NCBI RefSeq assembly: GCF_056746865.1
Contig: NZ_CM163382.1
DNA length: 64,000 bases
Strand: one strand, 5' to 3'
A program made the translations under genes and the position numbers. Under the pieces are notes generated by a model. That model had not been told where the DNA came from and ran no database searches. It saw only the letters and a program-made list of their open reading frames with translations. How positions within the stretch are numbered: the stretch's first letter is position 1; each line of letters starts with the position of its first letter. Below, one piece after another: positions 28,310 through 57,624 of this stretch.

Positions 28310-31201
<2,892 letters not shown>

Positions 31202-31205
<4 letters not shown>

Positions 31206-32089
31206 GCTTCCTCGGTTGTCGTCTGTTGTTGCGGATTTTTCACCGCACGCACATGCTCTTCCAGTTCAATAAACGACGGACGTTCGCTGGAATAGAGCGT
31301 TTTGCGACCAAACTCAACGGCGATAGGCGGTGCGTAACCGTTCAGATTAGAAAGCAGAGTGACTTTGACGCACTGCATCATTTTGCTGGTTTCGGCGCTT
31401 TTCTGACGTAAAACAGTCGCTAATGGGGAAATAAATCCGTAAGCCAATAAAATGCCGAGGAAAGTCCCCACCATCGCATGTGCGATAAGCGCACCCAGCT
31501 CGGCGGCAGGACGATCGGCTGAACCTAACGCGTGAACGACCCCCATTACAGCCGCAACAATACCAAACGCCGGAAGTGAGTCCCCGACCAGCGCCAGACT
31601 GTTCGCCGGGACTTCTGCCTCGCTTTCGTGCGTCTCAATCTCTTCATCCATCAGGGCTTCGATTTCGAAGGTGTTCATGTGACCGCTGATAATCAGGCGC
31701 AGATAATCGACGATAAAATCAAGCATGACGCTATCCGCGAGGATGCGTGGGTAGCTGGCGAAGATCTCGCTCTCACGGGGATTTTCAATATCACGTTCCA
31801 GCGAAAACATCCCCATCTGCCGCGATTTCGCCATCAACCGATAAAGCAGAGCCAGCAGATCCATATACATTGCTTTGGTGTATTTGGAGCGACGAAACAG
31901 CAACGGCAGCGCCTTCAGCGTGCCTTTAATCGCTTTGCCATTATTGCCGACGATAAACGACCCAATCCCTGCACCGGCAATAATCACCAGTTCAGCGGGT
32001 TGATAGAGTGCTCCAAGGCTTCCACCGGTCATCAAATAACCGCCGAAAACTGTACCGAGAACAACCAGGTAACCTAATAAGATAAGCAC
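31202..32089 (-). CDS. motA: Flagellar motor stator protein MotA (295 aa), GTG start
   Basis: ORF 31202..32089; 4-nt overlap with the motB start; plus-strand cac at 32087-32089. Confidence 0.97.
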
Positions 32090-32157
32090 GACATCATCCT
32101 TCCACTGTTGACCATGACAGGATGTTCAGTCGTCAGGCGTTAACGCGCGATTGGGGC

Positions 32158-32190
32158 AAAAAAAGCAGCGGTACGTCGTTACCGCTGCTG
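32158..32190 (-). terminator. Rho-independent terminator immediately after flhC (flhDC operon end; also expected MotR 3' end)
   Basis: Minus strand: gcagcggta-acgacg-taccgctgc followed by U7. Confidence 0.7.
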
Positions 32191-32252
32191 GAATGTTGCG
32201 CCTCACCGTATCAGTTAAACAGCCTGTACTCTCTGTTCATCCAGCAGTTGTG
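32158..32252 (-). ncRNA. motR: Candidate MotR sRNA (sigma-28-dependent, from the motA 5' UTR)
   Basis: Sigma-28 promoter at 32259-32285 inside the flhC 3' end and intrinsic terminator at 32158-32190 before motA delimit a roughly 95-nt transcript, as described for MotR. Ends not verified. Confidence 0.4.
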
Positions 32253-32793
32253 GGATAATATCGGCAGGATTCTGGGAAAGTTTACGTCTTTTTACTGCCC
32301 GGGATGGCGGTTGACATAAGCTGCAGGCAAAGCTGCCAACAGGCTGGTGAGCGTGGGTAATAAAATTGCCGCCGCAGCAGTTGCAGCTGGAAAGTTGCAG
32401 TAATCCACTTTCAACAAACCGCACCAATGTCCAGGCACGGGTTAATGCCAGCAGTGGTCCTTCTTCTGCTTGTGGGCACTGTTCAAGGTATAAACGGTAG
32501 GCTTTGATCACCGCATCGACGCCATTACACAAACCGGTTTTCAGTAAAAACTGCCATGCATTACAGAACATCGAAGCATGAACGTTTTGTTCCCAGGTCA
32601 TAAACCAGTCGGTTGAGAATGGCAGCATGCCTTTCGGCGGTGGGCTTCCGCGCAGTTCTTTATAAAGTTTTATCAGGCGTCCGCGACTTAACTGTGTTTC
32701 GCTTTCCAGCATCTGCAAACGAGCGCCCAGGGTGATCAATTCCATTGCCAGCTGAATATCCCGCGCTTCCTGAACAATGCTTTTTTCACTCAT
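32215..32793 (-). CDS. flhC: Flagellar master regulator subunit FlhC (192 aa)
   Basis: ORF 32215..32793; zinc-binding cysteine cluster (CNCCGG...CSLC). Confidence 0.97.
32259..32285 (-). promoter_or_regulatory. Sigma-28 promoter for motAB-cheAW (and MotR), located within the flhC 3' coding region
   Basis: Minus strand TAAACTTT-N11-GCCGATAT; 7/8 and 7/8 match to the sigma-28 -35/-10 consensus with 11-nt spacer. Confidence 0.7.
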
Positions 32794-32795
32794 GA

Positions 32796-33146
32796 TCAGG
32801 CCCTTTTCTTGCGCAGCGCTTCTTCAGGCTGATTAACATCATTCAGCAAGCGTGTTGAGAGCATGATGCCGGTATGAATTTGCTGGAGATCGTCAACGCG
32901 GGAATCTTGCGTCAACTGAGTAATCGTCTGGTGGCTGTCAAAACGGAAGTGACAAACCAGTTGATTGGTTTCTGCCAGCTTAACCATTTGCGGAAGAGTC
33001 AGTGCCGCTAACGTTGTCGCCATTTCTTCATTTATGCCGAGACGAAACATAGCGGACGCTTTGTCCTGAACAATCAAACGCTGTGCAAGTAGTAAATATG
33101 ACAAGTTGATGTCATAAATGTGTTTCAGCAACTCGGAGGTATGCAT
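32796..33146 (-). CDS. flhD: Flagellar master regulator subunit FlhD (116 aa; 119 aa if the upstream ATG is used)
   Basis: ORF 32796..33155 ([22 protein letters not shown]...); start placed at MHTSELL as in the structurally characterised protein. Confidence 0.93.
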
Positions 33147-33925
33147 TATTCCCACCCAGAATAACCAACTTTATTTTTATGCGGTTTCACCGCACCCCGT
33201 GATGTCGCCGGGAAGCCCCGGTAAAAAATAATTAGCATTAGAATAGTTGCGATAAGCTGCAATAAGCAGAACCACCTTTTTGGTTTAATATGTCCTTACA
33301 AATAGAAATGGGTCTTTACACTTATCTAAGATTTTTCCTAAATCGACGCAACTGTACTCGTCACTACACGCACATACAACGGAGGGGGGCTGCGATTTTC
33401 AATAATGTGTGATGCAGATCACACAAAACACTCAATTACTTAACATAAATGTATAAGTCATACTTTTGTTTTGGGTGTATTTCAATCTGTTAAAAAGTTT
33501 TTCGCTACGCTAGCAAGCAAAAATGAAACAGGAATAATCGAAATGGGATGTTGCGCACAGTCAAAATAACTCACCGTAAATAATCATCTGCTATAAATAA
33601 TCACTTTCATGCAATACCAGATAAGCTATTTTTAAACAGACACTTACCGCACAACAAACTAATTAAATACAAAGAAAGGCAACAATCAACTTAATGTTAA
33701 TGAAATGTTTTGCATATATTAACCACTTGTTTAATGCGGAGAATCAGTACACTATTTTCTTATAATTACATTTGAAATTATATGATCACCGGGAGTGATT
33801 GATTAATTGTCTTTACTAATAATCAGACTAATATTTACCTGTTTGACCGAGTTGGGATTGCGTCGTTTCTCCATTAGGAGTAAAGCTTTAATGTCACCTG
33901 AAGTTCACAGAATAAGGAACAGGTT
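33147..33925. promoter_or_regulatory. flhDC class 1 promoter / long 5' UTR and divergent uspC promoter region (about 780 bp, AT-rich, no ORF of 60 aa or more)
   Basis: Long AT-rich non-coding region between divergent flhD and uspC; known hub for CRP, OmpR, RcsAB, LrhA, H-NS and several sRNAs. No IS terminal repeats visible. Confidence 0.7.
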
Positions 33926-34354
33926 ATGAGCTATAGCAATATTCTTGTCGCTGTTGCAGTTACACCGGAAAGTCAGCAACTGCTGGCAAAAGCGGTATCT
34001 ATCGCCAGGCCAGTAAAGGGACACATCAGTTTAATTACTCTCGCTTCCGACCCGGAAATGTACAATCAATTAGCTGCGCCGATGCTTGAAGATTTACGCA
34101 GCGTGATGCAGGAAGAAACGCAAAGCTTTCTTGATAAGTTAATTCAGGATGCGGGGTATCCCGTTGACAAGACGTTTATTGCCTACGGTGAGTTAAGCGA
34201 ACATATTCTGGAAGTATGTCACAAGCATCATTTCGATTTGGTGATTTGCGGTAATCACAATCACAGTTTCTTTTCGCGAGCATCCTGCTCGGCGAAAAGA
34301 GTTATTGCCTCAAGTGAGGTCGATGTGCTGTTAGTTCCACTTACGGGAGATTAA
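33926..34354 (+). CDS. uspC: Universal stress protein C (142 aa)
   Basis: ORF 33926..34354; UspA-family fold. Confidence 0.95.
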   Translation: MSYSNILVAVAVTPESQQLLAKAVSIARPVKGHISLITLASDPEMYNQLAAPMLEDLRSVMQEETQSFLDKLIQDAGYPVDKTFIAYGELSEHILEVCHKHHFDLVICGNHNHSFFSRASCSAKRVIASSEVDVLLVPLTGD

Positions 34355-34360
34355 CCGCTC

Positions 34361-37713
<3,353 letters not shown>

Positions 37714-51986: not shown

Positions 51987-52651
51987 TTTGGTTCTCTCTC
52001 CTGGCGATTAAGTTGATTCTCAAAATGGTTCTGCAACGTCGATAATACTGTCGCCATGATCCAGTAGATGAGCGAAGCCGCCAGGTACATGGTGAACACC
52101 TCCAGCGTGCGCGAGGTAATCAACTGCGCCTGACGGAACAGCTCCGGCACCTGGATTGTCGCGGCCAGCGACGTATCTTTTACCAGGCTGATAAAGCTGT
52201 TCGACAGCGGCGGCAACGCCACCCGCGCCGCCTGTGGCAAAATCGCGCGACGCATGGTCTGCCACGGCGTCATACCAATACTGGCAGCTGCTTCCCACTG
52301 ACCTTTATCAATAGAAGAAATGGCGGCGCGAAGCGTTTCGGCAGCATAGGCGGCAGTGTTGAGCGACAGACCAATCATTGCTGACGGAATGGGATCTAAT
52401 TCGATACCAAACTGCGGCAGGCCGTAATAAATCATAAACAGTTGTGCGATGAGCGGCGTACCACGAAAAATAGAGATATAAAAACGCGCCAGCCAGCGCA
52501 CGGGCCAGATCGGCGACAGGCGCATCAGCGCGAGAATAAACCCGAGCAGTAAGCCAAAAAACATGCCGCCGATACTGAGTTGCAGCGTATACCCAGCACC
52601 TTTCAGCAGGAACGGCAAGGAATCAATAACCAGTTGTATACTTTCTTGCAT
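51983..52651 (-). CDS. tcyL: L-cystine ABC transporter permease TcyL (YecS; 222 aa)
   Basis: ORF 51983..52651; overlaps the tcyN start. Confidence 0.94.
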   Translation of the reverse strand: MQESIQLVIDSLPFLLKGAGYTLQLSIGGMFFGLLLGFILALMRLSPIWPVRWLARFYISIFRGTPLIAQLFMIYYGLPQFGIELDPIPSAMIGLSLNTAAYAAETLRAAISSIDKGQWEAAASIGMTPWQTMRRAILPQAARVALPPLSNSFISLVKDTSLAATIQVPELFRQAQLITSRTLEVFTMYLAASLIYWIMATVLSTLQNHFENQLNRQEREPK

Positions 52652-56280: not shown

Positions 56281-57624
56281 TTAACCCTGCAGCAGAGACA
56301 GAACCTGCTGCGGTACCTGGTTAGCTTTAGACAGCACAGAGTTACCCGCCTGCTGGATGATCTGCGCTTTCGACATGTTGGACACTTCGGTCGCATAGTC
56401 GGCGTCCTGAATACGGGACTGCGCTTCAGACAGGTTGGTGGTGGTGTTATTCAGGTTGGTGACCGCAGAATCCAGACGGTTTTGTACGGCACCGAGGGAG
56501 GAGCGGAAAGTATCAACTTGCGAGATAGCTTTGTCTAAAAGTGCCAGCGGATCGTTGGTTGCAGTACCAGAAAATGTTGCTGTTGCCGCTGTTTTTACAG
56601 AACCATCAACATCGAGTTCATCGGTAAGTTGGATTTTTGTGTCTTCATTTGTTGCAGCGTCACCACCGTTTTCAATTGCATCCTTACCGTCTGCACCAGC
56701 AAGGTAATCTTTGCCTTGAATAGTAACATAGCCAACAGCCGCGCCAGCACTATTCGTCGTGACCTTGATAGGCTGACCTGTCTGTGTTGCTGTGGTAACA
56801 CCGTTCGCAGGATCAGTGAAAGTAACATTGGTGGTATTAAGCGTAACAACGCCACCAGCATTAACGGAAGCCGAATAGAAGTCATTACCAGATTGAACAA
56901 CATAGGTTCCTGTCGCTTTACCATCCGCGCTTTGTACGTTATGTAGGGACAAGCCTGATGTATCACTTATTCCCAATGTTTTAGCCATTGCGGCAGCAGC
57001 GGTATCGTTCGCACCAAATTTAACCGTAACCGGGGCATCGCCAGCATTAGCACCAGGAACTGTAGTTATCGCATCGCTAACTTTTAATGCGTTCCCTGAT
57101 ACCGAGAAACCTTTCAATCCCAGCGTTGAAGAATCAATTTTCTGCAAATCGATAGAGATGGTCTGCCCGTCATTCGCGCCAACCTGAATCTTCATCGAAC
57201 CGTCTTTCGCCAGCACGTTCACGCCGTTGAACTGGGTCTGACCGGAAACGCGGTCAATTTCGTCGAGACGGGATTTGATTTCGTCCTGAATGGAGTCCAG
57301 ATCCGAATCAGAGTTAGTCCCGGTAGAAGCCTGAACCGTCAGTTCACGAATACGCTGTAAGTTGTTGTTGATTTCGGACAGCGCGCCTTCAGTGGTCTGT
57401 GCAACAGAAATACCGTCGTTGGCGTTACGTGCAGCCTGAGTCAGGCCTTTAATGTTAGAAGTAAAACGGTTAGCAATCGCCTGACCTGCGGCGTCATCCT
57501 TCGCGCTGTTAATACGCAAGCCAGAAGACAGACGCTCGATAGAACTCGACAGCGCAGACTGGTTCTTGTTGATATTATTTTGAGTGATCAGCGAGAGGCT
57601 GTTGGTATTAATGACTTGTGCCAT
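56281..57624 (-). CDS. fliC: Flagellin FliC (447 aa); conserved N/C termini with a central variable (H-antigen) domain that is not K-12 H48
   Basis: ORF 56281..57624; MAQVINTNSLSLITQNNINKNQSALSSSIERLSSGLRINSAKDDAAGQAIANRF... and C-terminal ...QVPQQVLSLLQG; length 447 aa versus 498 aa for K-12. Confidence 0.97.
   Translation of the reverse strand: MAQVINTNSLSLITQNNINKNQSALSSSIERLSSGLRINSAKDDAAGQAIANRFTSNIKGLTQAARNANDGISVAQTTEGALSEINNNLQRIRELTVQASTGTNSDSDLDSIQDEIKSRLDEIDRVSGQTQFNGVNVLAKDGSMKIQVGANDGQTISIDLQKIDSSTLGLKGFSVSGNALKVSDAITTVPGANAGDAPVTVKFGANDTAAAAMAKTLGISDTSGLSLHNVQSADGKATGTYVVQSGNDFYSASVNAGGVVTLNTTNVTFTDPANGVTTATQTGQPIKVTTNSAGAAVGYVTIQGKDYLAGADGKDAIENGGDAATNEDTKIQLTDELDVDGSVKTAATATFSGTATNDPLALLDKAISQVDTFRSSLGAVQNRLDSAVTNLNNTTTNLSEAQSRIQDADYATEVSNMSKAQIIQQAGNSVLSKANQVPQQVLSLLQG

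Follow-up and report, generated by a model that had tools for sequence, protein, structure and literature searches.

The flhD-uspC intergenic region at positions 33147-33925 of the analyzed DNA (the window, a single stretch of 64,000 nucleotides) is almost certainly the standard IS-free flhDC class I control region of a non-K-12 E. coli, including the native regulation proposed for it below. An IS-free flhDC control region is already known biology, representing the species default, and is no discovery.

The boundaries of the region were established from the flanking genes. Read on the complementary strand, 33144-33146 form the start codon of flhD, and the ATG of uspC lies at 33926-33928, so that the intergenic region occupies 33147-33925 exactly and measures 779 bp. 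The minus strand of the window carries motB-motA-flhC-flhD, after which come uspC on the plus strand, otsA, and otsB. The flhD ORF (32796-33146, minus strand), which opens the flhDC master operon, encodes 116 amino acids with 100% identity to MG1655 FlhD. The RefSeq protein accession of FlhC is common to the clinical strain F11 and W3110, and the window is the same as F11 across flhC. The divergent uspC ORF (33926-34354, plus strand, 142 amino acids) is annotated as uspC at this place in F11, to which the window sequence is identical there. The G+C content of the intergenic region is 35.2% (0.352) versus 50.3% (0.503) for the whole window, and dips to about 0.30-0.33 within 33400-33900. The upstream DNA from 33444 to 33925 has a G+C content of 32%, and on the basis of composition and collinearity, 33452-33925 was designated the far-upstream AT-rich region together with the uspC promoter side. 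The features of a wild-type IS-free class I region, namely a length of about 780 bp, divergent flanking genes, and an uninterrupted sequence, are all present. An earlier note on this DNA had described an AT-rich intergenic region of roughly 780 bp without an insertion; its coordinates proved exact, with a length of 779 bp, a G+C content of 0.352, and no IS.

The absence of an insertion sequence, also claimed in that note, was upheld by BLAST, terminal-repeat, direct and inverted repeat, and ORF searches, all of which came back empty. The IS1H sequence from MG1655 (NC_000913.3) and the IS5 sequence from W3110 (NC_007779.1) were used as BLAST queries against the whole window, and yielded chance matches alone; the lowest E-value was 0.14, and no match within the region was informative. 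No IS1 or IS5 similarity was found between the flhD promoter and uspC, where an IS-activated flhDC allele of the K-12 laboratory type would have an IS1, IS3, or IS5 element. Terminal repeats of IS1 and IS5 were not detected at up to 3 mismatches, and the repeat search returned zero inverted or direct repeat pairs within 33147-33925. For transposase, the longest ORFs in the region are 40 amino acids long and lack a significant Pfam match. Two such ORFs of 40 amino acids (33290-33412 and 33807-33929) were set aside as chance occurrences, the sole Pfam match having an E-value of 0.2, short of the cut-off.

The insertion targets known from K-12 are present in an empty state. The IS target hot spot at 33440-33451 consists of TTAA (33440-33443), the IS5 target, followed directly by CATAAATG (33444-33451), the IS1H target. 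Each of the two occurs once, with no direct repeats; neither IS1 or IS5 ends nor target-site duplications (TTAA for IS5, 8-9 bp for IS1) are present, and the target sites are single-copy and unoccupied. Activating insertions are known from about -96 to -476 (PMC5100188), and the documented sites at approximately -166, -303, -315, and -476 correspond to approximately 33510, 33647, 33659, and 33820 of the window, all of which are uninterrupted. PMC11237407 reports a further activating insertion 516 bp ahead of the start codon, and this position is likewise uninterrupted. The flhDC upstream region has been described as a stress-destabilized duplex into which IS5 inserts (PMC5493358), and upstream IS insertions raise motility (PMC5100188, PMC11237407, PMC5493358, PMC8652233).

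Comparison with the K-12 references placed these observations in context. Subtracting IS1H and its 8-bp duplication from MG1655, or IS5 and its TTAA duplication from W3110, leaves a sequence collinear with the window. The alignments also bear out the earlier statement that laboratory lineages, the sequenced MG1655 among them, carry IS1 or IS5 upstream of flhD, this being IS1H in MG1655 and IS5 in W3110. Against the IS-removed MG1655 sequence the region is 99.6% identical, with three SNPs in 779 bp (window/MG1655: 33408 T/C, 33712 G/A, and 33809 G/A). The segment 33147-33407, which covers the leader, the transcription start site, and the core promoter between the flhD ATG and the CRP site, is 100% identical to MG1655, and the leader and core-promoter elements mapped in K-12 can therefore be transferred to the window.

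The transcription start site was placed at 33344, the position to which the end of the K-12 AsflhD annotation (base 1978395) maps, resulting in a 198-nt leader. With this start site, the TTAA target of IS5 falls 96-99 bp upstream, in agreement with the positions given in PMC5100188, where Barker 2004 and Wang and Wood 2011 are cited for an IS5 target at -96 to -99. Both elements, the leader as well as the core promoter, thus correspond to those mapped in K-12, with 33147-33407 identical and the start site consistent. The flhDC 5' leader (33147-33344, minus strand) contains the ArcZ and McaS pairing sites at approximately 33153-33232, with positions taken from PMC11331407, and GGA motifs near its 5' end. 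The antisense RNA AsflhD (33125-33344, plus strand) was transferred from MG1655 asflhD at 1978176-1978395 (PMC9600491); for this transfer 33147-33344 is identical to MG1655, and 33125-33146, which lies inside the flhD ORF, was compared as protein only. A search of 30000-37000 against Rfam at E ≤ 1 gave no match, AsflhD and the flhDC leader being without an Rfam family.

A weak sigma-70 core promoter is predicted at 33351-33379 on the minus strand, with a putative -10 hexamer TACAGT (33351-33356) and a putative -35 hexamer TTGTAT (33374-33379) separated by a 17-bp spacer. These hexamers were assigned solely from their canonical distance to the start site. A scan for consensus promoters and terminators returned 0 sites, which is uninformative for a weak CRP-dependent promoter with hexamers under the scan threshold; the outcome is what would be expected of a weak, activator-dependent promoter and does not count as independent support for one. 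Upstream of the core promoter, a palindromic cAMP-CRP site of the form TGTGA-N6-TCACA is predicted from the sequence at 33405-33426 (motif 33408-33423). Its center at 33415.5 corresponds to -71.5, and by its sequence it would qualify as a CRP site.

In order to evaluate how common this arrangement is, the region was compared with 5426 complete E. coli genomes, and it matched at a single location with coverage of at least 80% in at least 5271 of them (at least 97%). A sample of 40 genomes taken evenly down the ranking comprised 36 with a single uninterrupted piece, 2 with IS1, and 2 with a partial region. The spans among the matches listed were 777-780 bp. Five divergent sequences (94.9-98.5% identity), F11, and the IS-removed MG1655 sequence all aligned end to end with an indel of at most 1 bp. 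The possibility that the native region is longer and that part of it had been deleted was checked in this way; spans of 777-780 bp in divergent lineages indicate that the native region is not longer and that the window carries no deletion. The exact MG1655-type flank/IS1 junction was present in 65 of the 5426 genomes and the W3110-type flank/IS5 junction in 58 (123 classic junctions in all), and among the matches listed the carriers all resemble K-12 laboratory derivatives by name or genome size, such as MG1655 stocks, W3110, MC4100, DH10B, BW2952, and HMS174. Because these classic junctions are so rare, the absence of an IS is the default of the species rather than a distinguishing feature of this strain. 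Together with the minority CRP allele of K-12 discussed below, the rarity of the IS alleles cautions against using MG1655 as the standard for flagellar regulation.

Other alleles of the region were encountered during the comparison. In strain AUSMDU00014361, 235 bp are deleted between two copies of GAAATGGG (33305-33312 and 33540-33547 in window coordinates), which form an 8-bp direct repeat. The deletion takes out the start of the leader, the promoter, the CRP site, and the IS hot spot, and this is probably a natural non-motile allele. An IS1 in the urine isolate E05 has a truncated tar gene on one side and the final 221 bp ahead of uspC on the other, and this IS1-bounded deletion, which begins inside tar, has removed cheW, cheA, motAB, and flhDC.

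The background of the strain was examined in light of the suggestion in the earlier note that it differs from MG1655, which is well supported by the three SNPs in the region and by a fliC gene unlike that of H48. The fliC gene (56281-57624, minus strand) encodes a protein of 447 amino acids that is 60% identical to the K-12 H48 FliC of 498 amino acids; the two proteins share conserved ends but have unrelated central domains, as expected for the non-H48 assignment made in the same note. The full-length fliC allele is found in just 11 of the 5426 complete genomes, all of them non-K-12 and none named with a serotype. The nearest genome is that of F11 (NZ_CP184143.1), with 2 differences in 49,000 aligned bases, at 33809 and at 52519. 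The latter position lies in tcyL, with G in the window and T in F11. Position 33809, approximately 117 bp upstream of uspC, has three alleles: G in the window, which is the common one, T in F11, and A in MG1655. The 779 bp are identical in no complete genome of the 5426, the best matches having one mismatch. G at 33809 was considered as a strain-private marker and rejected, its exact 81-bp context being present in 2233 genomes; T is the variant of F11 and A that of K-12. Separately, a 25-kb block at 21001-46000, extending from cheZ to yecA and including flhDC, is near-identical to the B strains BL21 and REL606, with a bit score approximately 40 below that of the best match. By sequence, the closest relatives include F11 and the B strains.

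Given the 99.6% identity to the IS-removed MG1655 sequence and the identity of FlhD and FlhC to those of K-12, it could be argued that the region is a K-12 allele from which the IS was precisely excised, or that it comes from a K-12 stock that was never hit, such as MG1655 CGSC 6300 or BW25113. However, the three SNPs relative to MG1655 include the T/C position in the CRP site by which the K-12 haplotype is recognized, the window having T rather than C at 33408. In addition, fliC is not that of H48, as it differs in the central domain and its allele occurs in 11 non-K-12 genomes, and only 2 of 49,000 bases separate the window from the clinical strain F11. A K-12 origin of the region is refuted by the fliC and SNP data, and we regard it as extremely improbable. 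It is just as hard to credit that the IS-free appearance is an assembly artifact, produced by a collapsed repeat or by a mixed culture with and without the IS. Some laboratory stocks are documented to be mixtures of cells with and without an IS upstream of flhDC (PMC11237407), but the sequence in the window is continuous, agrees with thousands of independent complete genomes, and contains neither partial IS ends nor a duplicated target site. None of the results runs against the structural reading of the region as an IS-free control region of a non-K-12 strain.

On the basis of this assignment, a working scheme for the regulation of flhDC can be proposed, in which the sites of regulators other than CRP are taken from the K-12 literature. 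Transcription would start at 33344 on the minus strand from the weak sigma-70 promoter (-10 TACAGT, -35 TTGTAT), and this promoter is likely to depend on cAMP-CRP bound at the site predicted to be centered at -71.5. The long AT-rich upstream DNA would bind repressors and nucleoid proteins, keeping expression low and conditional. Regulators named in the literature are H-NS, LrhA, OmpR, RcsAB, Fur, IHF, MatA, and YjjQ, and repression through the upstream DNA by H-NS, LrhA, OmpR, RcsAB, and others is covered in PMC5493358; the literature on IS activation and flhDC regulators also includes PMC5289928. The 198-nt leader would in turn be the target of CsrA, of the small RNAs ArcZ, McaS, OmrA/B, and OxyS, and of the antisense RNA AsflhD. 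With no IS lying between the promoter and its upstream DNA, native control of flhDC should be fully retained, and flhDC expression should not be constitutively raised as it is in MG1655 (IS1) or in W3110, RP437, and MC4100 (IS5). For the strain of the window, we infer factor binding and expression level from the K-12 literature. The term ancestral-type promoter, used in the earlier note, is apt as a structural description; as a predictor of expression level it does not hold, because motility cannot be read from the sequence. The expected native control of flhDC, and a background outside the K-12 laboratory derivatives, provide useful context for strain typing and nothing more.

The SNP at 33408 raises a further question about the level at which the native promoter is set. 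The window has T at this position, approximately -64 relative to the start site, giving the consensus half-site TGTGA, and K-12 has C, giving CGTGA. T was present in 7 of 7 non-K-12 sequences aligned, and the 81-bp haplotype around the CRP site occurs in the form of the window in 2831 genomes and in the K-12 form in 399, so that at the activator site of the master flagellar promoter it is K-12 that has the less common allele. Fahrner and Berg reportedly found in 2015 that flhDC of K-12 can be stimulated by the change of a single base where cAMP-CRP binds. As the T completes the TGTGA-N6-TCACA palindrome in the window, the intact region may confer a higher flhDC set point than that of IS-free K-12, possibly allowing motility without an IS. 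We consider this reading possible but on the whole unlikely. T is the majority allele of the species (2831 versus 399 genomes), so any effect would make K-12 the unusual strain. Moreover, motility of ECOR isolates was weakly or not correlated with PflhD activity, and followed class III expression more closely (PMC5289928). An extension of this reading, which we hold even more tentatively, is that the K-12 flhDC promoter represents a weakened minority allele, as the altered half-site might suggest, helping to explain the ready fixation of IS insertions in K-12, and that strains resembling that of the window have a higher native set point. If true, IS insertions would let K-12 stocks regain motility, and strains such as that of the window would reach the higher set point without any.

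Finally, the region was compared with the known states of the flhDC control region. IS-free K-12, represented by BW25113 and by the poorly motile MG1655 stock CGSC 6300, has the same 779-bp length and organization as the window. However, the three SNPs differ, including the T at 33408 that gives the consensus CRP half-site, and the surrounding genome of the window is not that of K-12. The sequenced MG1655 (U00096/NC_000913.3) shares its flanks and genes with the window, but its intergenic region of 1555 bp is the sum of the 779 bp, the 768-bp IS1H, and an 8-bp duplication of CATAAATG at 33444-33451, where the window has a single octamer and no IS. Strains of the W3110, MC4100, DH10B, and RP437 type also have the flanks seen in the window, with IS5 at TTAA (-96 to -99). 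The W3110 intergenic region of 1978 bp is composed of the 779 bp, the 1195-bp IS5, and a 4-bp TTAA duplication at 33440-33443, in contrast to the one TTAA and absent IS5 of the window. The non-K-12 strains NCTC9008 and AF56, the latter a blood isolate, have the haplotype of the window, with flanks 99.8-100% identical and one mismatch in 779 bp. Both carry IS1 with 9-bp duplications, in NCTC9008 at 33461-33469 (117-125 bp upstream of the start site) and in AF56 at 33481-33489 (137-145 bp upstream) and in opposite orientations, whereas the window is uninterrupted at both positions. These two examples indicate that IS insertion upstream of flhD is not confined to K-12.
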